From Escherichia coli (GTDB lineage: Bacteria > Pseudomonadota > Gammaproteobacteria > Enterobacterales > Enterobacteriaceae), in the NCBI RefSeq assembly GCF_044324875.1, contig NZ_CP172185.1: a DNA stretch of 64,000 nt; one strand, 5' to 3'. The notes under the pieces were generated by a model. That model did not search any database. It saw only the letters and a list, made by a program, of their open reading frames with translations, and was not told where the DNA came from. The position numbers were made by a program, and so were the translations under genes. Shown one piece after another: positions 43,854-55,367 of the stretch (the stretch's first letter is position 1; the number at the start of each line of letters is the position of its first letter).

Positions 43854-44188
43854 AAGCGCATCCTCTAAGTGTAAATACATCAATGCAGCGTCATGCCGCG
43901 TAATAGATTTATGCTAACCAGTCATTGCCGTTTACGCCACGTTACGGACACTTTTTTACTTTTATACTCTAAATAATTCGAGTTGCAGGAAGGCGATAAG
44001 TGAGTGAGTCCCCAGGAGCTTACAGAAGTAAGTGACTGGGGTGAGCGAGCGTAAGCGCAGCACATGCAACTTGAAGTATGACGAGTATACTGCGAGGGTG
44101 ATCGACCGGCTGGGATTAGATAAGGAAACAGGCTACACTTCGCCTTTGAAAACTCATCATCACGATAAACATAGAGGCGAAGTCCAAC

Positions 44189-45856
44189 GTGGCTCAATTC
44201 GTTTATACCATGCATCGTGTCGGCAAAGTTGTTCCGCCGAAACGTCATATTTTGAAAAACATCTCTCTGAGTTTCTTCCCTGGGGCAAAAATTGGTGTCC
44301 TGGGTCTGAACGGCGCGGGTAAGTCCACCCTGCTGCGCATTATGGCGGGCATTGATAAAGACATCGAAGGCGAAGCGCGTCCGCAACCGGATATCAAGAT
44401 TGGTTATCTGCCGCAGGAACCGCAGCTGAACCCGGAACACACCGTGCGTGAGTCCATTGAAGAAGCGGTTTCAGAAGTGGTTAACGCCCTGAAACGCCTG
44501 GATGAAGTGTATGCGCTGTACGCCGATCCGGATGCCGATTTTGACAAGCTGGCCGCTGAACAAGGCCGTCTGGAAGAGATCATTCAGGCTCACGACGGTC
44601 ACAACCTGAACGTTCAGCTGGAGCGTGCGGCGGATGCGCTGCGTCTGCCGGACTGGGACGCGAAAATCGCTAACCTCTCCGGTGGTGAGCGTCGTCGCGT
44701 GGCGTTGTGCCGCCTGCTGCTGGAAAAACCAGACATGCTGCTGCTCGACGAACCGACCAACCACCTGGATGCCGAATCCGTGGCCTGGCTGGAACGCTTC
44801 CTGCACGACTTCGAAGGCACCGTTGTGGCGATTACCCACGACCGTTACTTCCTCGATAACGTTGCGGGCTGGATCCTCGAACTGGACCGCGGTGAAGGTA
44901 TTCCGTGGGAAGGTAACTACTCCTCCTGGCTGGAGCAGAAAGATCAGCGCCTGGCGCAGGAAGCTTCACAAGAAGCGGCGCGTCGTAAGTCGATCGAGAA
45001 AGAGCTGGAGTGGGTACGTCAGGGAACTAAAGGCCGCCAGTCGAAAGGTAAAGCACGTCTGGCACGCTTTGAAGAGCTGAACAGCACCGAATACCAGAAA
45101 CGTAACGAAACCAACGAACTGTTTATTCCACCTGGACCGCGTCTGGGCGATAAAGTGCTGGAAGTCAGCAACCTGCGTAAATCCTACGGCGATCGCCTGC
45201 TGATTGATGACCTGAGCTTCTCGATCCCGAAAGGGGCGATCGTCGGGATCATCGGTCCGAACGGCGCGGGTAAATCGACCCTGTTCCGTATGATCTCCGG
45301 TCAGGAACAGCCGGACAGCGGCACCATCACTTTGGGTGAAACGGTGAAACTGGCATCGGTTGATCAGTTCCGTGACTCAATGGATAACAGCAAAACCGTT
45401 TGGGAAGAAGTTTCCGGCGGGCTGGATATTATGAAGATCGGCAACACCGAGATGCCAAGCCGCGCCTACGTTGGCCGCTTTAACTTTAAAGGGGTTGATC
45501 AGGGTAAACGCGTTGGTGAACTTTCCGGTGGTGAGCGCGGTCGTCTGCATCTGGCGAAGCTGCTGCAAGTTGGCGGCAACATGCTGCTGCTCGACGAACC
45601 AACCAACGACCTGGATATCGAAACCCTGCGCGCGCTGGAAAACGCTCTGCTGGAGTTCCCGGGCTGCGCGATGGTTATCTCGCACGACCGTTGGTTCCTC
45701 GACCGTATCGCCACGCACATCCTGGACTACCAGGATGAAGGTAAAGTCGAGTTCTTCGAAGGTAACTTTACCGAGTACGAAGAATACAAGAAACGCACGC
45801 TGGGCGCAGACGCGCTGGAGCCGAAGCGTATCAAGTACAAGCGTATTGCGAAGTAA
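44189..45856 (+). CDS. ettA: Energy-dependent translational throttle ABC-F protein EttA
   Basis: 555-aa ORF MAQFVYTMHRVGKVVPPKRHILKNISLSFFPGAKIGVLGLNGAGKSTLLRIMAG with two ABC ATPase domains. Confidence 0.96.
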   Translation: MAQFVYTMHRVGKVVPPKRHILKNISLSFFPGAKIGVLGLNGAGKSTLLRIMAGIDKDIEGEARPQPDIKIGYLPQEPQLNPEHTVRESIEEAVSEVVNALKRLDEVYALYADPDADFDKLAAEQGRLEEIIQAHDGHNLNVQLERAADALRLPDWDAKIANLSGGERRRVALCRLLLEKPDMLLLDEPTNHLDAESVAWLERFLHDFEGTVVAITHDRYFLDNVAGWILELDRGEGIPWEGNYSSWLEQKDQRLAQEASQEAARRKSIEKELEWVRQGTKGRQSKGKARLARFEELNSTEYQKRNETNELFIPPGPRLGDKVLEVSNLRKSYGDRLLIDDLSFSIPKGAIVGIIGPNGAGKSTLFRMISGQEQPDSGTITLGETVKLASVDQFRDSMDNSKTVWEEVSGGLDIMKIGNTEMPSRAYVGRFNFKGVDQGKRVGELSGGERGRLHLAKLLQVGGNMLLLDEPTNDLDIETLRALENALLEFPGCAMVISHDRWFLDRIATHILDYQDEGKVEFFEGNFTEYEEYKKRTLGADALEPKRIKYKRIAK

Positions 45857-45863
45857 TGCGTAA

Positions 45864-45900
45864 AATGCCGGATGCGGCGCGCCAGCATCGCATCCGGTAT
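45864..45900. repeat. REP-like palindromic unit downstream of ettA
   Basis: tgccggatgcggcgcgccagcatcgcatccggta, an imperfect GC-rich palindrome of the REP type. Confidence 0.5.
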
Positions 45901-46011
45901 TAGTTAAATGATTAGTCCCCGGAAAAAAGCAAAATTTTCTTTAAGCGTATTAGCTCAGATGCGGACTGACATCTCAAATCAAGCGGGAACTCATGGTTCC
46001 CGCTTAACGTT

Positions 46012-46899
46012 TTATTCACCGCGCAGGATCTGGCGGAAATGGGAAACCAGCGGACGTTGGTTGGCTTTATGCCAGGCTGCCCATAATTGCGTTGAATAAT
46101 TCATCCACGGCAATTCACGTAATACCACCCCTTCCGGCGCATTATGACGCAGACTATTTTGAATTAAGGCCAGACCTAATCCCGCAGCGACCAAACCTAA
46201 TGCCGTGAGGGGTTCACCCGCTTCCAGGCGAATATCAGGATTAAACCCGGCGTTAACACAGGCGGCGACAAAATGATCGCGAGAATGCGCATCGTCGTTA
46301 TGAATCACCGCAATCCACTGCTCATCGCCAAGTTGTGACGCGACAAGGTTTTCCTCCTGCGCCAGAGGATGATTTTGCGGTAAGGCCAACAACATTCGAT
46401 CATCCAGAACCTGAATATATTCCAGATCCTGCTCGCTGTCGGTGGGCGGCGTATCGACCAGAGAAAAATCGAGACTGCGCTGACGCAGGCCTTCAATCTG
46501 GGTAGCCGGTGGTTGGCTGTAAAGAGCGATATGCACATTCGGACGCGATACACGTAACGTACGTAGCGCCGTAGAAAGCACACCGGAATGCATGGCGTTT
46601 TCGATATAGCCAATACACAAGCCACCATCTTCCCCCCGTCCCAGGCGTTTGCCTAACGACTCCAGGCGGTTGGCGTGTGTCAGCAACGAACGTGTTTCGG
46701 CAAGGAATGTCTGTCCATCAGCGGTCAGGCGAATGCGCTGCTGATTACGCTCAAACAGCGTCAGTCCCAGCCGTTCTTCCAGTTGTGCAATCTGGCGGCT
46801 CAGCGGCGATTGCGAGATATGTAATCGCTCGGCTGCGCGTCCCACGTGCTCTTCTTCTGCGACCACCACGAAGTACTTCAGTTGGCGTAAATCAATCAT
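46012..46899 (-). CDS. LysR-family transcriptional regulator
   Basis: MIDLRQLKYFVVVAEEEHVGRAAERLHISQSPLSRQIAQLEERLGLTLFERNQQRIRLT N-terminal HTH, followed by an effector-binding domain; divergent from the aldo-keto reductase gene. Confidence 0.85.
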   Translation of the reverse strand: MIDLRQLKYFVVVAEEEHVGRAAERLHISQSPLSRQIAQLEERLGLTLFERNQQRIRLTADGQTFLAETRSLLTHANRLESLGKRLGRGEDGGLCIGYIENAMHSGVLSTALRTLRVSRPNVHIALYSQPPATQIEGLRQRSLDFSLVDTPPTDSEQDLEYIQVLDDRMLLALPQNHPLAQEENLVASQLGDEQWIAVIHNDDAHSRDHFVAACVNAGFNPDIRLEAGEPLTALGLVAAGLGLALIQNSLRHNAPEGVVLRELPWMNYSTQLWAAWHKANQRPLVSHFRQILRGE

Positions 46900-47031
46900 G
46901 TTAGACCTCAAAGGACTTAAGTCAGACGAATTATGTCCTATCAAGTCACAACCTCGCAAGGTATTGTGATCCACGTCACAGGGCAATAGCAAAAAACGCC
47001 CGAACCCAAACCGAATAATTGAGGACATCTT

Positions 47032-48042
47032 ATGAGCATCAAAAATTTACTTCCCGGCAAAATTGGCTTAGGCGGCGCACCACTCGGCAACATGTTCCGT
47101 GCCATTCCGGAAGAAGAGGCCCACGCCACCGTGAGCGAAGCCTGGAACCTGGGTGTGCGTTACTTTGATACCGCGCCGCTGTACGGCTCTGGCCTTTCTG
47201 AAATCCGCATGGGTGAAGCGCTGTCTCAGTATCCACGCGATGAATACGTTCTGAGTAGCAAAGTCGGTCGCATCGTGCTGGACGAAATGGAAGATCCGGC
47301 AAAACGGGATTTCGGTGAAAAAGGTGGCCTGTTCGAACACGGCCTGAAAAACAAAATTCTGAATGACTACTCTGCTGACGCCACGCTGCGCTCGATTGAA
47401 GACAGCCTGAAACGCCTGAAAACAGATCGTCTGGATATTGTCTGGATCCACGACCCGGCGCAGGACTTCTACGGTGACAGCTGGCTGGAGCAGTTCAACA
47501 TAGCCCGTACCGGTGCGTTTCGTGCGCTGACGCGTTTGCGTGACGAAGGTGTGATTAAAGCCTGGGGACTGGGTGTCAACCGCGTCGAACCTTGCGAACT
47601 GACGCTGGCGCTGGACGAACCGAAGCCGGATGCGTTCCTGCTGGCGGGGCGTTATTCCCTGCTGGATCACGAACGTGCGCTGCAACGCCTGATGCCAGAA
47701 GCACTGGAACAGAACGTGGATATTGTTGTGGGCGGTCCGTACAGCTCTGGCGTACTGGCAGGCGGCGAGCACTTTGAATATCAGAAAGCTTCTGCGGCCA
47801 TCCAGCAGAAAGTGGCGCAAATTAACGCCATTGCCACACGTTTCAATGTGAACGTTAAAGCGGCTGCGCTGCAGTTCGCGCTGGCAAACCCGGCCGTTGC
47901 AGCGGTTATTCCTGGCTCCAGCCGTCCTGGCCGTATGGCAGAAGATCTGGCTGCACTGAATGCGCCTGTTCCGGCTGAATTCTGGGCAGAAATGCGCCGT
48001 CAAAATCTGGTTGCGGAAAACGCTCCGCTGCCGACCCGTTAA
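47032..48042 (+). CDS. Aldo-keto reductase family oxidoreductase (336 aa)
   Basis: N-terminal GLGGAPLGNMF...EAWNLGVRYFDTAPLYGSGLSE pattern typical of the AKR fold. Confidence 0.85.
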   Translation: MSIKNLLPGKIGLGGAPLGNMFRAIPEEEAHATVSEAWNLGVRYFDTAPLYGSGLSEIRMGEALSQYPRDEYVLSSKVGRIVLDEMEDPAKRDFGEKGGLFEHGLKNKILNDYSADATLRSIEDSLKRLKTDRLDIVWIHDPAQDFYGDSWLEQFNIARTGAFRALTRLRDEGVIKAWGLGVNRVEPCELTLALDEPKPDAFLLAGRYSLLDHERALQRLMPEALEQNVDIVVGGPYSSGVLAGGEHFEYQKASAAIQQKVAQINAIATRFNVNVKAAALQFALANPAVAAVIPGSSRPGRMAEDLAALNAPVPAEFWAEMRRQNLVAENAPLPTR

Positions 48043-48061
48043 TCAACCTGGTGAGAAAACG

Positions 48062-48858
48062 ATGAAACTGGATCTGACAGGTAAAGTCGCGGTGGTCAGC
48101 GGCTCAACCTCCGGCATTGGGCAGGGTATCGCCGCCGGACTGGCAAAAGCAGGCGCAACGGTGGTTGTCGTCGGCCGTAAACAGCGCGGCGTTGATGATG
48201 CCATGGCTGCGATTGCGGCACAAACTCCCACGGCGTCACTGCGCGGCGTGGTGGCCGATCTCAGCACCGAAGACGGCGTGGCTGCGCTGATCGCTGCAGT
48301 CCCAACGGCTGATGTGCTGGTCAATAATCTGGGCATTTTTAACGATAAAGATTTCTTTAGCGTTCCGGATGATGAGTGGATGCACTTCTATAACGTCAAC
48401 GTCCTCTCCGGCGTTCGTCTGGCGCGTCACTATGCGCCAGGCATGACGGAACAGGGCTGGGGCGGATTATCTTTGTCTCGTCTGAATCCGGCGTGGCAAT
48501 TCCTGGCGACATGATCAACTACGGCGTCACCAAAGCCGCGAATCTGGCGGTTTCTCATGGTCTGGCGAAACGACTGGCAGGGACCGGTGTGACCGTCAAC
48601 GCCATTCTGCCAGGGCCAACCTTTACCGATGGCCTGAAAGAGATGCTGGCGGATGCCGCTGCACAATCGGGACGCAGTGCGCGTGAACAGGCCGATGAGT
48701 TTGTTAAAACCTCGCGTCCGAGCTCCATCATCCAGCGTGCGGCGGATGTGGAAGAAGTGGCGAATCTGGCGGTTTATCTCGCGTCACCGCTTTCCTCGGC
48801 AACCACAGGGGCAGCCCTGCGCGTCGATGGCGGCGTCGTCGACACCCTGACAATGTAA
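48062..48858 (+). pseudogene. Short-chain dehydrogenase/reductase (SDR) interrupted by a frameshift near 48461-48466
   Basis: N-terminal half (MKLDLTGKVAVVSGSTSGIGQGIAAG..., Rossmann TGxxxGIG motif) is in one frame and ends prematurely; the catalytic half (...RIIFVSSESGVAIPGDMINYGVTKAA... with YxxxK) continues in another frame; the nucleotide context ggctggggcgga looks like a single-base indel. Confidence 0.7.
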
Positions 48859-48883
48859 CCCTATAAATTAAGAGAAAATTATC

Positions 48884-49300
48884 ATGGCTAAAACAACTGT
48901 ATCGATCGAAATTCCGGCTTCTGCCGACGCCGTATGGCAATTGATGGGCGGCTTTGATGCGCTGCCAGACTGGCTGCCGTTCATCCCGAAAAGCGTAGTG
49001 ACAGAAGGCGGTCGCGTTCGTTCGCTGACAACCTCTGACGGCGGCACTGTGGTTGAACGTCTGGAAGCGTTTGATAACCGTCAACGCAGTTATACCTATT
49101 CCATTATTCAGGCACCGTTCCCGGTGGTGGATTACCTCTCCACCATTACCGTTCATGAAACCGCCGACAGCCAGGTTTCCCGTGTGGAATGGTTCGGTGA
49201 ATTCACCCCGGTGAATGTGACGAACGAAGAGGCCGAAGCGCTGTTTACCGGCATCTATCGGGATGGTCTCAAGGCGCTGAAGGACAACTTTGTTGCCTGA
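48884..49300 (+). CDS. SRPBCC (Bet v1 / polyketide-cyclase-like) ligand-binding protein, 138 aa
   Basis: Size and the AVWQLMGGFDALPDWLP pattern resemble SRPBCC-fold proteins; assigned on composition and pattern only. Confidence 0.6.
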   Translation: MAKTTVSIEIPASADAVWQLMGGFDALPDWLPFIPKSVVTEGGRVRSLTTSDGGTVVERLEAFDNRQRSYTYSIIQAPFPVVDYLSTITVHETADSQVSRVEWFGEFTPVNVTNEEAEALFTGIYRDGLKALKDNFVA

Positions 49301-49457
49301 TGCGATCGACAGGCGTCGGAACGTCCGGCGTCTGATTATTAACAAAAACAGAATAGTCTATTGCCATTTGTATCATTTATGTTATCAGGCAGTAGGCGTA
49401 TTCTCTCCCCATCGCGTTAATAAACGCCAAACAATTAAGACACTCTGGAATATAAAC

Positions 49458-49670
49458 ATGAAAACGATCATCGCAATTTTTACGGCTTCTCTTTTCTCTG
49501 TCGCGGCGTTTAACGCATCGGCGCAAAGCGTGACAGCAACCGGTACAACACTGGATTCCGCTGAAGCGGTTATTGCGCAGAAAGCGAAAGAGATGAACGC
49601 CTCTGAATACAAAATTACCAGCGCTCGCATGGGCAATACCGTCACCATGAGTGCCGAACTGTACAAATAA
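49458..49670 (+). CDS. Small periplasmic DUF1471 (YdgH/BhsA/McbA-like) protein, 70 aa
   Basis: Signal peptide MKTIIAIFTASLFSVAAFNASA, then a ~50-aa domain ending in ...SAELYK, typical of this stress-associated family. Confidence 0.7.
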   Translation: MKTIIAIFTASLFSVAAFNASAQSVTATGTTLDSAEAVIAQKAKEMNASEYKITSARMGNTVTMSAELYK

Positions 49671-49718
49671 CCGCACGAGAGACCCATTACGTAATTTGCT
49701 AAATATGCGCTGAATGCG

Positions 49719-49990
49719 TTGCCATTAATAAACCGTATTGTAATGCCACCGATGACGCGTTCCCGTGCGGGTGACGTTGCGACTGACATAATGGCGGCCT
49801 ATTACGCGCAGCGCGCCAGTGCTGGACTTTTCATTAGCGAAGGTACGCAAATCAGCAGAAGCGCTGCGCATAATTTTCCACGGCACGCTGATTTACTCCG
49901 GTAAAGACACCAAAGCGCGCGCCGAACAGGCGCTGGCTAACGGCTAGTCGGATCTGATTGGATTTGGTCGTCCGTATAGTGCCAAAAGCG
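49719..49990 (+). pseudogene. Remnant of an old-yellow-enzyme (NemA-like NADH:flavin oxidoreductase) gene
   Basis: MPLINRIVMPPMTRSRA...DIMAAYYAQRASAGLFISEGTQIS matches the OYE N-terminal FMN-binding region but stops after about 60 codons; a downstream out-of-frame stretch (...DLIGFGRPY...) resembles the OYE C-terminus, consistent with an internal deletion. Confidence 0.55.
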
Positions 49991-50097
49991 GAAGTTGGTA
50001 GTTTCAGCCTATGTTGATAAACGGGGAGCCGGTCAGCACGTAAAGAGATTTTTTTGTACTGCTATGGCCCGATCAAAAATCGATTGAGCCGAATGTG

Positions 50098-50469
50098 CTA
50101 GCTATCTCCGAAGATAATTTTTTCGAGCTCCTGCAAGTCCTGCTGTGATTGCTCGTTAAGGTTAGCCTCTAACTTGTCGTACCATGTAAGCAGTTTCTTG
50201 CCAAGTGGTGTCAAAACCGAGCCTCCACCTTTACTGCCGCCTGTTGATGTAATTACCACCGGCTTACCTATGCCTTTATTGAGTGTATCAATCAGGAGCC
50301 ACGCCCTTTTATAGGGGATTCCCAGATCTTTTGCGGCAGCTGAAAGGGAATGAAACCCATCTATAGCTCGTAAAAGATCGATTTTCCCCGGTCCCAGCGA
50401 GATATTGTCATTAATGTAGATTCGGGGTCTGACCAAAATAAAATCAAACATAAGCGTTTTTTTATTCAT
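50098..50469 (-). CDS. ModE N-terminal-domain-like winged-helix regulator (about 120 aa)
   Basis: ...LSAAAKDLGIPYKRAWLLIDTLNKGIGKPVVITSTGGSKGGGSVLTPLGKKLL resembles the ModE N-terminal DNA-binding domain; start codon is ambiguous (Met at 50487, 50469 or 50451). Confidence 0.6.
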   Translation of the reverse strand: MNKKTLMFDFILVRPRIYINDNISLGPGKIDLLRAIDGFHSLSAAAKDLGIPYKRAWLLIDTLNKGIGKPVVITSTGGSKGGGSVLTPLGKKLLTWYDKLEANLNEQSQQDLQELEKIIFGDS

Positions 50470-50494
50470 TCTGAGAACTCCGTGCAAAGTATTT

Positions 50495-50914
50495 TTATCG
50501 GGTGTGTTTGAAAGTTTTGATGGCAGAAATAAGAAGGATCACACCAAGTAAAGTCATAAGGGCTTTAAGTGGGAACAAGCCGACCATAAGTCCACCAATT
50601 GCTGCACCAATTACTGAACCAATAACCATCCATACAAACAGTGTCCTTTCTTGCTTCAGAATCAGGAAAGCATCTGCATTTATATAACGGGAAAAGCCAA
50701 CAATCATTGTTGGCAGGCTAATCATCAGTGAAAGACTTCCGGCCAGTTTAATATCTTCCCCGAAAAGGATAACGATTGTGGGGATAAGAAGCTCTCCGCC
50801 AGCCACTCCGAGCAATGCTGCGACTATCCCGATAAAGCCCCCTGATACCACCCCCACAATAATCATGGCAAGGCCAGGTTGAAATAACCCGCCTGAAATA
50901 CTGTGCAACGGCAT
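50495..50914 (-). CDS. DUF81 (TauE/SafE sulfite-exporter family) permease, C-terminal half (139 aa)
   Basis: Four predicted transmembrane helices with the GVAGGELLIPTIV motif; starts at the codon immediately after the TAG that ends the upstream half, in the same frame. Confidence 0.65.
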   Translation of the reverse strand: MPLHSISGGLFQPGLAMIIVGVVSGGFIGIVAALLGVAGGELLIPTIVILFGEDIKLAGSLSLMISLPTMIVGFSRYINADAFLILKQERTLFVWMVIGSVIGAAIGGLMVGLFPLKALMTLLGVILLISAIKTFKHTR

Positions 50915-51301
50915 CTAGGCTTCAGAGAGCATGACAAAAGACAGTAAAACAAGCAGGATCAGAATGATTCTGTCCAGCCAGATTCTGGACATCTTTATGG
51001 CACGACCTGCGGCCCACCATGCTCCAATAAGACTTCCTGCCAGCAAATTTATGACAATATCAAGATGCGCCACCAACTGATCAAAAGATATAGATTTTGT
51101 TCGGAAAATTAAAGCAATAGCCACCACGGCGAGACTCATTGCTTTGTTAAAAATGACGGCTTCCAGAGAAGGGATTTTGAAACTACCGATCAGTACGGGA
51201 AGGCGAAATTCAGCCCCTCCGAGGCCAATCAACCCACCTAAAGCCCCTATTACCGCGCCTGAGAAAAAACCTTTACCATTCCTGTTTGAAACTGACGACA
51301 T
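50915..51301 (-). CDS. DUF81 (TauE/SafE family) permease, N-terminal half (128 aa)
   Basis: Four predicted transmembrane helices with the GLGGAEFRLPVLI motif; ends at a TAG that is immediately followed in frame by the ATG of the second half. Confidence 0.65.
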   Translation of the reverse strand: MSSVSNRNGKGFFSGAVIGALGGLIGLGGAEFRLPVLIGSFKIPSLEAVIFNKAMSLAVVAIALIFRTKSISFDQLVAHLDIVINLLAGSLIGAWWAAGRAIKMSRIWLDRIILILLVLLSFVMLSEA

Positions 51302-51714
51302 GCGTTCCTCTCTAATTCGTTATGTCTTTTTTGACATAACGACAAGCATAGCATTGCAGAACAGGCGTCTGGTAGTTGCTTGTAAAGACGAGGATTGATC
51401 CAGGTTAAAATTTATTCTATTAACCTGCTCTCCGTTGTTTAACACACCACGATTTATGTGATGCTTTCATGAGAAATTAAAACAACTAAGAACTTCCGCT
51501 TCTCGCTCGAAGCGGACTGTCAGATTTGATTGCATTCTGGCTACGCAACTGGTCGGTTGGAGTATGAAGTTGCTCACGAATAGCCTTAGCATCCGCAATT
51601 TCGTAGCGGGTCACCCGTGCAGGTTCTTTCTAATCTCAACAGCCTCTTCCAGAGAGTTTTTCAACTCATCAAAAAACTCAATTTATACCTCGCCTTTGAG
51701 CCGTTTCATCACGG

Positions 51715-52947
51715 TTATCTCTGCTCCCCCATCATCTCCCGCACAAGTTCCACGCAGCGCAGGAAACGGCTGTCATAATCGTCCTCTTCAACACGCACGA
51801 ATTCGATATTGTTCTCTTCCAGCATCTCCACCAGCAAGTTCTGGAACTCTTTGCGATCCACCGAACTACCGAGGCTGCGTAAACCATCCGCCACCCACGG
51901 GGTGTTGTTCTCCAGCAAGATAACCAGATCAAAACGGTATTCATCAATCAGCGCCTGCACGAACGGATGCTCACGCCCTTCGTACTTTTTGCAGAACGCC
52001 TGGGTAGTGACAAAATCAGTGTCGATAAACGCCACTTTATTGGCGTATTTCACTGCAAAATCAATATATTGCGCGTGTCCCAGCGCGATTTTATCGTAGT
52101 CAGAATACTGCAATGCGATCTCATCACCGCCGAGGTGTGAAAAGACATAATCGCGACCATATTCCCACGCACTGGTGGTATTGAAGATATTGGCAAGTTT
52201 GTTTACCAGGGTGGATTTACCGCTCGACTCGCCGCCAAGGATCGCCACGGTACGCACAAAAAACGGCTTCACTTCAGTGGGGATATATTCCCAGTAGCGG
52301 AACGGGTTTTCGCGGATCTGCGCACCGCTGATACTCATAAAGGTGCGTTTCGGATCGACCAGCACCGTTTCGATCCCCAGATGTTCCATATACTGTGGCG
52401 CATCGGCTTCTTCCGAGGTGTAGATCAGGTCCGGCTGGATCCCCTTTTCAGCCATAAACTTTTTGATGCCATTGCTCCACACATCCCAGCCGTGCGGATA
52501 TGGCTCCATGCCCTCTTCGTTGAAAGCATGAATACGGATATTTTTCTGATATTTAAAGGTTTGCAATAACCAGCGCAGACGATCCGGCACGGTGGGCTGC
52601 TGCGACATGGCGCTGTCTTCAAACAACGCACGGTCACGGGTATCGTCAAAGCCCATAATGATATGCAGCTCGTCAACCTGGCTACAGGCGCGCTGGATAA
52701 GGTAGATATGTCCGGTATGTAGCGGGTAGAACTTACCGAATACGACACCAATGGTTTTCTTCTGCCGGGGAAATTCAAGCCCCAAAAAACGGTGCAACGC
52801 CTCCAGCTTTTGCGCGCTGGGGCTTTTAATTTTGGCATTCAGTAACTGGCTTAAATACCCTTTGGTCATACCGCTGGCATCAGCTACCTGCTGTAGCGTG
52901 CAGCCCTGTTGCTTGATGGCAGTTTTCAGGTAATCAAATGACGACAT
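51715..52947 (-). CDS. nadR: Trifunctional NAD biosynthesis/regulator protein NadR
   Basis: MSSFDYLKTAIKQQGCTLQQVADASGMTKGYLSQLLNAK HTH, followed by NMN adenylyltransferase and ribosylnicotinamide kinase (P-loop GGESSGKST) domains. Confidence 0.95.
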   Translation of the reverse strand: MSSFDYLKTAIKQQGCTLQQVADASGMTKGYLSQLLNAKIKSPSAQKLEALHRFLGLEFPRQKKTIGVVFGKFYPLHTGHIYLIQRACSQVDELHIIMGFDDTRDRALFEDSAMSQQPTVPDRLRWLLQTFKYQKNIRIHAFNEEGMEPYPHGWDVWSNGIKKFMAEKGIQPDLIYTSEEADAPQYMEHLGIETVLVDPKRTFMSISGAQIRENPFRYWEYIPTEVKPFFVRTVAILGGESSGKSTLVNKLANIFNTTSAWEYGRDYVFSHLGGDEIALQYSDYDKIALGHAQYIDFAVKYANKVAFIDTDFVTTQAFCKKYEGREHPFVQALIDEYRFDLVILLENNTPWVADGLRSLGSSVDRKEFQNLLVEMLEENNIEFVRVEEDDYDSRFLRCVELVREMMGEQR

Positions 52948-52967
52948 ATCTCCCTCCGTATCTCTCA

Positions 52968-54350
52968 TTATAAGTCGTCGAACACGCTAAGCGCGTCGGA
53001 GAGTTTTTTAACGCCAAAAATCTGCATCCCTTCCGGCGCTTTTTTCGGCACGTTAGCCGCCGGAACAATCGCCCGCCGAAAACCGTGTTTCGCCGCTTCA
53101 GAGATTCGTTCCTGGCCGCTGGGCACCGGGCGGATCTCCCCTGCCAGCCCGACTTCACCAAACACCACCAGATCCTGCGGTAGCGGTCTATCACGCAGGC
53201 TGGAAACCATCGCCAGCAGTAACGCTAAGTCGGCACTGGTTTCCGTCACCTTCACGCCGCCGACCACGTTAACAAATACATCCTGATCGGCCATTTGCAA
53301 CCCACCGTGACGGTGCAGCACCGCCAGCAGGATTGCCAGACGGTTTTGCTCCAGCCCTACTGCGACGCGGCGTGGATTCGCCATCATCGAGTGATCGACC
53401 AATGCCTGGATCTCCACCAGCAGTGGACGCGTTCCTTCCCATACCACCATCACTGAGCTACCGGAGGTCACTTCATCACCGCGGCTTAAAAAGATGGCGG
53501 AAGGGTTGCTAACTTCACGCAGCCCCTGTTCGGTCATCGCGAAGACGCCCAGCTCATTCACCGCGCCGAAGCGGTTTTTATGGCTGCGTAAGGTGCGAAA
53601 ACGGGAGTCGGCATCGCCATCCAGAAGCACCGAACAGTCGATACAGTGTTCCAGCACTTTAGGGCCAGCCAGCGAGCCATCTTTGGTTACGTGCCCAACC
53701 ATGACAATCGCCACACCGCGCGTTTTGGCGAAGCGCGTCAGATAAGCCGCCGTTTCACGCACCTGCGCCACGCTGCCAGGCGATGACTGAACATCCGCCA
53801 TATGCATCACCTGGATCGAGTCAATTACCATCAGCTTCGGTTGCTCTTCTTCGGCAATCAGGCAGATTTGTTCGATGCTGGTTTCAGACAGCATATTGAG
53901 ATTGTCAGTCGGCAGGCCAAGGCGATGAGCGCGCATTGCCACCTGTTGCAGCGACTCTTCGCCGGTGACATACAGCGTTTTCATCTGCTGGGCCAGTTTG
54001 CACAGCGTTTGCAACAGCAGCGTGGATTTCCCCGCGCCTGGGTTACCGCCAATCAGAATGGCGCTTCCCGGCACCACCCCGCCGCCTAATACGCGGTCGA
54101 ACTCTTTAAATCCGGTGGAAAAACGCGGCAGCTCTTCAAGGCTGATGTCGGAAAGTTTCTGGACTTTTGCCACCCCGGCGCTACCGGCATAGCCACTGAG
54201 ACGCTCGTTACGCGCCACCGTTGGCGACGCTGCAAGACGCACCTCGGTGATGGTGTTCCAGGCATGACAGGCGCTGCACTGCCCCTGCCAGCGCGGATAA
54301 TCGGCCCCGCATTCATTACAAACAAAGGCGCGTTTTGGAGCTTTTGCCAC
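52968..54350 (-). CDS. radA: DNA repair protein RadA (Sms)
   Basis: GTG start (VAKAPKRAFVCNECGADYPRWQGQCSACHAWNTITE zinc finger), RecA-like P-loop GGNPGAGKSTLLLQ and a Lon-like C-terminus. Confidence 0.95.
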   Translation of the reverse strand: MAKAPKRAFVCNECGADYPRWQGQCSACHAWNTITEVRLAASPTVARNERLSGYAGSAGVAKVQKLSDISLEELPRFSTGFKEFDRVLGGGVVPGSAILIGGNPGAGKSTLLLQTLCKLAQQMKTLYVTGEESLQQVAMRAHRLGLPTDNLNMLSETSIEQICLIAEEEQPKLMVIDSIQVMHMADVQSSPGSVAQVRETAAYLTRFAKTRGVAIVMVGHVTKDGSLAGPKVLEHCIDCSVLLDGDADSRFRTLRSHKNRFGAVNELGVFAMTEQGLREVSNPSAIFLSRGDEVTSGSSVMVVWEGTRPLLVEIQALVDHSMMANPRRVAVGLEQNRLAILLAVLHRHGGLQMADQDVFVNVVGGVKVTETSADLALLLAMVSSLRDRPLPQDLVVFGEVGLAGEIRPVPSGQERISEAAKHGFRRAIVPAANVPKKAPEGMQIFGVKKLSDALSVFDDL

Positions 54351-54398
54351 GGTGTACCTCGTTAATGCTGTGCCGCCCGCAGGATGACGGGCGAGCAA

Positions 54399-55367
54399 TT
54401 ACTTCTGATTCAGGCTGCCAGAGAGGATGCAGAATACCCCCATCAGGTCAGCGTGACGGATGGTGACTTCCGTCTTTTCATTCACTTTTGGCTTGGCATG
54501 GTAGGCAATCCCCAGCCCTGCCGCTTTGATCATCGGCAGGTCATTGGCTCCATCACCAATCGCCACGGTCTGCGCCAGCGGGATTTCATACTCCTGCGCG
54601 AGGCGAGTCAGAGTTTTCGCTTTGTACTGCGCGTCTACGATGTCGCCGATCACATTGCCGGTAAATTTACCGTCCATGATCTCCAGTTCATTGGCTACCA
54701 CGGCTGTCAGGCGCAGCTTGTCGCGCAGGTATTCAGCAAAGAAAGTAAAGCCACCGGAGGCAATCGCCACTTTCCAGCCCAGCGTTTCCAGCTTGAGTAC
54801 CAGTTGCGTTAAGCCTGGCATCAGCGGCAGATTTTCACGCACCTGTTGCAGAATATTGGCGTCAGCGCCTTTCAGCGTCGCCACGCGGCTGCGCAGGCTG
54901 GCGGTAAAATCGAGTTCGCCGCGCATCGCCCGTTCGGTTACCTCCGCCACCATCTCGCCCGTTCCGGCCAGTTTGGCAATTTCATCAATACATTCAATCT
55001 GGATGGCGGTGGAATCCATGTCCATCACCAGCAAACCCGGCGTGCGCAGGTGCGGGATTTTCCCCAGCGGCGCGACATCCAGCTGCGCTTCGTGAGCCAG
55101 GCGCGTAGCCCGCGCGGTGAGTGAACCTGCCAGACGAATCACCTGATAATCTTCCACGCACCAGGCGGCAACAATCACCATCGCCGCGCCCAGTTTGCTC
55201 TGGTATTGGGTCAGACGTTGTTTATCCAGCCCACGACCATACAGCAGCCAGCCGCTACGACCTGCGTGGTAATCCAGTGGCATCACTTCATCACCACTTA
55301 ATGAAAGAGGCAGCCCCGGCCATAAAGAGACATCTTCAGGCAGGTCGCACCAGGTAATGTTAGGCAT
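54399..55367 (-). CDS. serB: Phosphoserine phosphatase
   Basis: MPNITWCDLPEDVSLWPGLPLSLSGDEVMPLDYHAGRSGWLLYGRG... with the HAD motif DMDSTAI; 322 aa from the internal Met. Confidence 0.95.
   Translation of the reverse strand: MPNITWCDLPEDVSLWPGLPLSLSGDEVMPLDYHAGRSGWLLYGRGLDKQRLTQYQSKLGAAMVIVAAWCVEDYQVIRLAGSLTARATRLAHEAQLDVAPLGKIPHLRTPGLLVMDMDSTAIQIECIDEIAKLAGTGEMVAEVTERAMRGELDFTASLRSRVATLKGADANILQQVRENLPLMPGLTQLVLKLETLGWKVAIASGGFTFFAEYLRDKLRLTAVVANELEIMDGKFTGNVIGDIVDAQYKAKTLTRLAQEYEIPLAQTVAIGDGANDLPMIKAAGLGIAYHAKPKVNEKTEVTIRHADLMGVFCILSGSLNQK

Follow-up and report, generated by a model that had tools for sequence, protein, structure and literature searches.

A short segment of the Escherichia coli chromosome, positions 49689-49985 on the plus strand of the 64,000-nucleotide stretch analysed here (the window), is a non-functional remnant, or pseudogene, of a 365-codon old-yellow-enzyme (OYE) 'alkene reductase' gene, a reading to which a probability of about 95% is given and against which no observation speaks. 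About 290 of the 1,098 bases of the gene are left, in the form of two OYE (PF00724) pieces that lie in different reading frames between 49695 and 49985; the larger extent, from 49689, takes in the former start. Judged from its sequence, the remnant encodes no enzyme, since of its 365 codons no more than about 96 are left, in two frames, and both the start codon and the active site are gone. As pseudogenes go it is an ordinary one, and public annotation had flagged it previously: RefSeq (PGAP) labels it 'alkene reductase; incomplete; missing C-terminus'. A literature search found no paper on the remnant or on the island that carries it.

Two pieces of one gene and six lesions

The N-terminal piece (49695-49856, plus strand) holds codons 3-58 minus codons 28-29 and bears the PPMTR FMN-contact motif. 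It was delimited by tblastn, by the PF00724 profile and by blastn against the intact allele of cryptic Escherichia, represented by 'E. coli E69' (CP089930.1, locus L014), with which it is colinear up to position 4174 of that locus. When ten orthologues were aligned to it by tblastn, nine of them intact and one (L039) frameshifted, residues 3-59 matched at 79-88% identity with E values of 1e-24 to 4e-27. The C-terminal piece (49857-49985, plus strand) is read in the other frame and consists of the last nucleotide of codon 287, codons 288-329 and two nucleotides of codon 330. Residues 288-329 of the orthologues match it at 79-86% identity (E 2e-17 to 1e-19), and by blastn it corresponds to L014 4861-4989 at 93.0% identity, beyond which homology stops. 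By tblastn with the closest intact orthologue the two segments reach 98.2 and 75.5 bits, while 100 shuffles of the segment gave 23.5 bits at best, so the similarity is well beyond chance.

Much of what the initial annotation had proposed from the letters alone is borne out by these alignments. The 61-codon open reading frame that it described at 49719-49904 exists and is OYE-like, with its first 50 residues matching Oxidored_FMN (PF00724, profile positions 12-65 of 342) at 33.1 bits (E 4.8e-08) against a curated cut-off of 27 bits; the C-terminal piece alone gives no match in a Pfam search. The internal deletion that it suspected of removing most of an approximately 365-aa gene is 686 bp long, the orthologue has a length of exactly 365 aa, and the C-terminal-like sequence that it placed out of frame downstream is the second tblastn piece. 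A tblastn search of the whole window with K-12 NemA returned two matches only, residues 7-66 at 49695-49865 (52% identity, E 2.5e-11) and residues 288-330 in the other frame at 49858-49986 (E 0.003), and alignment to the intact orthologue mapped the deletion endpoints to gene nucleotides 175-860, with the junction at 49856|49857. Its statements on the N-terminus and on the start have to be corrected. The N-terminus that it called intact has lost its start codon, carries a stop at codon 2 and lacks two codons, and the start that it placed at 49719 lies 24 bases inside the homology, which begins at 49695 and ends at 49985. Two further lesions, a stop at W317 and a 36-codon truncation at the 3' end, were absent from it.

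A base-level alignment of the window allele and four other E. coli remnant alleles with the intact L014 allele gives six lesions for the window. The former start and codon 2 (49689-49694, plus strand) read ATG TTA in the intact allele and ACG TAA in the window, so that the start is lost (ATG to ACG, 49689-49691) and codon 2 has become a stop (TTA to TAA, 49692-49694); ACGTAA is present in all five remnant alleles. An in-frame deletion of 6 bp at about 49769/49770 removed codons 28-29, one unit of an imperfect Ala-Gly repeat, for which slippage is a plausible cause. The major lesion is the 686-bp deletion with its junction at 49856-49857 (plus strand; L014 4175-4860), which took out codons 59-286 and two nucleotides of codon 287, about 62% of the gene, and shifted the frame. 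In the C-terminal piece, W317 is replaced by a stop (TGG to TAG, 49945-49947). The last lesion is the 3' breakpoint at 49985-49986 (plus strand), where the sequence after gene nucleotide 989 (codon 330) is gone, and with it the last 36 codons and the stop codon.

The catalytic residues of the OYE active site are a His/Asn pair that binds the substrate and a Tyr that donates a proton (PMC3659409). The corresponding H183-G-A-N186-G-Y188 motif of the intact orthologue falls inside the 686-bp deleted segment, and the remnant accordingly lacks H183, N186 and Y188. Nor does it hold a complete (beta/alpha)8 TIM barrel in one frame behind a start codon, as about 96-98 of 365 codons are left, in two frames. 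The OYE TIM barrel takes about 340-400 residues.

The 686-bp junction is identical in all five aligned remnant alleles, which span all three arrangements of the DNA to the right of the remnant that are described below; it was checked base by base in these five and is deduced for other genomes from two-piece BLAST coverage. A sequencing or assembly artefact was considered and is refuted, as independent complete genomes, whose hosts and countries of origin differ, carry the identical junction. When compared with the intact allele, the junction shows no microhomology; the flanking bases forbid even a one-base slide, and the junction is blunt. Replication slippage between repeats is therefore unsupported as a source of the 686-bp deletion.

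The lesions divide into shared and secondary ones. Start loss, codon-2 stop and deletion junction are common to all five aligned alleles. The 3' breakpoint is common to both arrangements that still reach it, the third type, found in O145:H28 strains, being without the region from gene nucleotide 931 on. Among the five alleles, the 6-bp deletion and the W317 stop are confined to those of the window type, and P0002, P0003 and L081, alleles of other E. coli, retain the W317 codon. Protein variants from other strains carry further secondary changes, so that the secondary lesions are polymorphic among strains.

Intact orthologues and family placement

A protein search with the fused remnant brought up mostly short fragments from E. 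coli, together with a single longer relative (P0012), on whose contig the OYE gene is immediately preceded by a DUF1471 gene. When one genome per species was scanned with this relative, orthologues were found in Kluyvera, Citrobacter amalonaticus, Yokenella, Kosakonia and 'E. coli E69'. Nine of ten translated orthologues are intact at 363-366 aa, that of E69 having 365 aa. The DUF1471 neighbour accompanies intact orthologues in Kluyvera, Citrobacter, Yokenella, Kosakonia and cryptic Escherichia, and in Yokenella the whole six-gene module described below is present and colinear at 81.5% identity. Intact orthologues with a conserved DUF1471 neighbour in several genera indicate that the intact state is ancestral. 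The remnant thus combines homology with a gene order that is conserved in intact relatives, at 97.55% identity in cryptic Escherichia and 81.5% in Yokenella.

The initial annotation had called the gene NemA-like, which stands at the level of the family (PF00724) and fails at that of the subfamily. The intact orthologue shares 48% identity with K-12 NemA, and its score with the NemA subfamily model NCBIfam NF007899 is 396.4 bits, just below the cut-off of 403. Of its solved relatives, SYE1 of Shewanella oneidensis comes closest by far, at 464.5 bits (E 2.8e-138, residues 2-364), compared with 344 bits for solved NemA. By sequence comparison, then, the ancestral gene is a separate SYE1-like paralogue. 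With SYE1 (PDB 2GOU and related entries) the intact orthologue shares the PPMTR motif, the HxxN...Y active site, the length of 365 aa and the long beta-3 loop region; unlike SYE1, the window keeps codons 3-58 and 288-329 only, in two frames, with neither start codon nor active site. NemA (b1650, the E. coli N-ethylmaleimide reductase) has the PF00724 domain and the 365-aa length in common with the intact orthologue and is a paralogue rather than an orthologue. Its context in K-12 is nemR-nemA-gloA, whereas the remnant lies beside a DUF1471 gene in an ettA-nadR island.

The PGAP pseudogene ACU5TU_RS20805 (NZ_CM128601.1) represents the same locus, the 701-bp query 49400-50100 being 98.9% identical there. 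That annotation spans just 117 bp of the N-terminal piece and omits the C-terminal piece, the deletion endpoints and the lost start.

Loss of this gene is not confined to E. coli. A Kluyvera genome (GCA_027681865.1, L003 8001-8934) carries an orthologous OYE gene with a 167-bp internal deletion that is 98.9% identical to the K. ascorbata gene, and in Trabulsiella odontotermitis (L039 4001-5079) the orthologous gene is broken by a 16-bp deletion. The Kluyvera and Trabulsiella deletions are independent, and the SYE1-like reductase gene appears to be dispensable and repeatedly lost.

Reading frames, transcription and constraint

Two short open reading frames lie over the remnant. The 61-codon frame (49719-49904, plus strand) starts with a TTG that is codon 11 (Leu) of the ancestral gene and no real start codon. 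It is a by-product of the deletion, made up of 46 codons of OYE sequence followed by about 15 codons in which the C-terminal piece is read out of frame. The second frame, of 42 codons with a GTG start (49819-49947, plus strand), lies over the C-terminal piece and recurs in two other islands (L001 6420-6548 and L002 3420-3548).

It is conceivable, at very long odds, that one or the other of these frames is a real small-protein gene exapted from OYE fragments. RefSeq annotates the 42-codon frame as a coding sequence in some genomes (WP_000883916.1, 'hypothetical protein', and WP_025210167.1, 'oxidoreductase'), and about 9% of complete E. coli genomes still carry the remnant. Against this, a Shine-Dalgarno-like sequence is absent before the start of either frame, and the boundaries of the frames vary by strain: P0001 fuses both frames, P0002 and P0003 read through at the position of the TAG in the window, and P0011 and P0064 retain two extra codons relative to the window. 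In O145:H28 strains part of the region that bears the frames is deleted, and about 98 residues of a 365-residue TIM barrel from which the active site is gone cannot form the enzyme. The 42-codon frame reads the C-terminal OYE piece out of context, and its annotation as a coding sequence is most likely spurious.

The pattern of substitution also runs against small-protein genes, non-synonymous changes in the remnant outnumbering synonymous ones. Compared with the intact allele, 5.9% of its bases differ, with 6 synonymous and 10 non-synonymous codon changes, whereas the LysR, SRPBCC and DUF1471 genes of the same island differ from the intact-module allele at about 2.2% of bases, with 29 synonymous and 5 non-synonymous changes; the counts are small in both sets. 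Constraint on the remnant is relaxed relative to its neighbours, in the direction that a pseudogene predicts, on small numbers.

The conserved upstream partner of the OYE gene, a DUF1471 gene of the YdgH/BhsA/McbA family (49458-49670, plus strand), is intact in the window. In intact loci the spacer between the two genes is 18 bp, and we infer that they were once co-transcribed. The remnant is probably still transcribed from the DUF1471 gene and would at most be an untranslated trailing stretch of its mRNA. An Rfam scan of 48800-51800 with E values up to 1 gave zero matches, so that neither the remnant nor its surroundings contain a known RNA element. When 49300-50600 was scanned for promoters and terminators, there was one prediction of each kind, at or below the shuffle expectation, which provides no evidence of a regulatory role for the region.

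The island, its distribution and the order of events

The window has the gene order slt, ettA, island, nadR, radA, serB and is an E. coli-type chromosome segment. The accessory island (45882-51578) fills the ettA-nadR interval, which is about 5.7 kb long here versus 135 bp in K-12. It holds, in order, genes for a LysR regulator, an aldo-keto reductase, a short-chain dehydrogenase-type (SDR) oxidoreductase, an SRPBCC protein and a DUF1471 protein, and then the OYE remnant, 3' of which lie a ModE-like winged-helix (wHTH) gene, a TauE/SafE gene and a NadS remnant. The module from the LysR gene to the OYE remnant (45981-49985) is 97.55% identical to a module of cryptic Escherichia, window 45981-49856 corresponding to L014 291-4174 at that identity.

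Elsewhere in the window, the nadR-radA-serB segment shows 96.6% identity to K-12. Between slt and ettA lie 123 bp (43965-44087) that are without a K-12 counterpart, the flanking K-12 alignments abutting, and that may be a small repetitive extragenic element. The best match among 5,426 complete E. coli genomes reaches 99.2% over 20000-44000 and 98.4% over 44000-56000, which leaves the lineage of the window without a close representative among them.

Decay is not limited to the OYE gene, and the suggestion of the initial annotation that the island is undergoing genome decay is supported by two further genes. The SDR-family oxidoreductase gene (48062-48858) is frameshifted by the loss of one G from a GGGGG run (about 48455-48459), its counterparts in other E. 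coli and in cryptic Escherichia being intact at 265 aa. The TauE/SafE sulfite-exporter-family gene (50498-51301, minus strand) has an in-frame TGG to TAG change at codon 129 (50915-50917) and is intact (268 aa) in other islands of the window type (L001, L002). This stop is of the same mutation kind as the W317 stop in the OYE remnant.

A query spanning the intact gene matched the locus in 482 of the 5,426 complete E. coli genomes (about 9%), always as two pieces that cover about 32-36% of it. The deleted 686 bp were found in none of the 5,426; the only matches to this segment were paralogous alkene reductases in 8 genomes, at 69-78% identity. A query reaching into the wHTH-TauE side was covered to at least 80% in 41 genomes.

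On its right side the remnant is followed by one of three arrangements: wHTH-TauE-NadS, the type of the window, a DUF2846 gene in deer strain 48, and a direct join to nadR in O145:H28. The variable spot corresponds to window 49986-51578, to L081 4615-5534 and to about position 4542 of L082, and the short NadS-family remnant beside nadR is shared. The window and DUF2846 types also have in common the first 12 bases past the OYE break (49986-49997). An inverted 11-mer about 450 bp downstream of the intact gene was considered as a source of these bases; the match does not extend and was taken as chance.

In contigs with an intact copy, the six-gene module always lies between yhiN and yhiM/arsP and never between ettA and nadR, a placement that rests on two exact protein sequences with 24 contigs each. 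The sources of these intact proteins are named E. ruysiae, E. marmotae, Escherichia sp. or E. coli. The core genes flanking the intact module are about 92% identical to K-12, against the 97.55% identity of the module to the window island (e.g. L085 6291-11098; L083-L096), which points to horizontal exchange after the lineages had split. On these identities a horizontal exchange of the island module with cryptic Escherichia is probable, and the right end of the exchanged DNA would then fall inside the OYE gene; the 3' breakpoint of the remnant coincides with the right edge of the shared module. Some cryptic Escherichia genomes carry, just 3' of the intact OYE gene, a gene of 1,952 aa with DUF4011, AAA_11-AAA_12 helicase, MTES_1575 and DUF3320 domains that is absent in others (L083 11865-17723 compared with L092 9099-9202) and that may be a defence-type gene.

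The best explanation for the whole takes the ancestral OYE gene as the last gene of a small module of redox and stress functions. In E. coli the module sits as an accessory island at ettA-nadR, where the OYE copy lacks its last 36 codons and its start codon. This copy has also lost an internal segment of 686 bp, in one blunt event for which we infer illegitimate recombination. Neutral drift would have followed, with lesions accruing by lineage, those of the window lineage being the 6-bp slippage deletion and the W317 stop.

Solely in the order of events does a further account depart from this explanation, and it is put at somewhat less than an even chance. It holds that the OYE gene was never intact at ettA-nadR and formed the ragged right end of an acquired piece of about 4 kb, with the 3' truncation first and the 686-bp deletion later; the gene may thus have reached E. 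coli already truncated at its 3' end. Homology to the donor-type module ends within the OYE gene, at 49985, every intact copy found sits elsewhere, at yhiN-yhiM, and no intact or 3'-complete copy is present in any of the 5,426 complete E. coli genomes; the difference in identity between flanks and module, in implying horizontal exchange, agrees with it as well. On the other side, what follows the break on the right varies in its own turn (wHTH-TauE, DUF2846 or the direct nadR join), and the 3' end could just as well have been lost through later insertions or deletions at such a hot spot.

A related and similarly tentative proposal, also held short of evens, is that the module of about 4 kb moved between the yhiN-yhiM site of cryptic Escherichia and the ettA-nadR site of E. 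coli and that the OYE gene was broken at insertion, which would make the remnant an exact recombination endpoint. If true, this would be a small, well-resolved case of illegitimate integration into a hot spot that also takes wHTH-TauE or DUF2846 cassettes; it would mark the endpoint of an inter-species transfer, yet no new kind of element.

The remnant opens no new biological question, and the result mainly tidies the annotation: a pseudogene at 49689-49985 with six mapped lesions and an embedded 42-codon coding sequence that is almost certainly spurious. It also documents the repeated loss of an SYE1-like reductase that appears to be dispensable.
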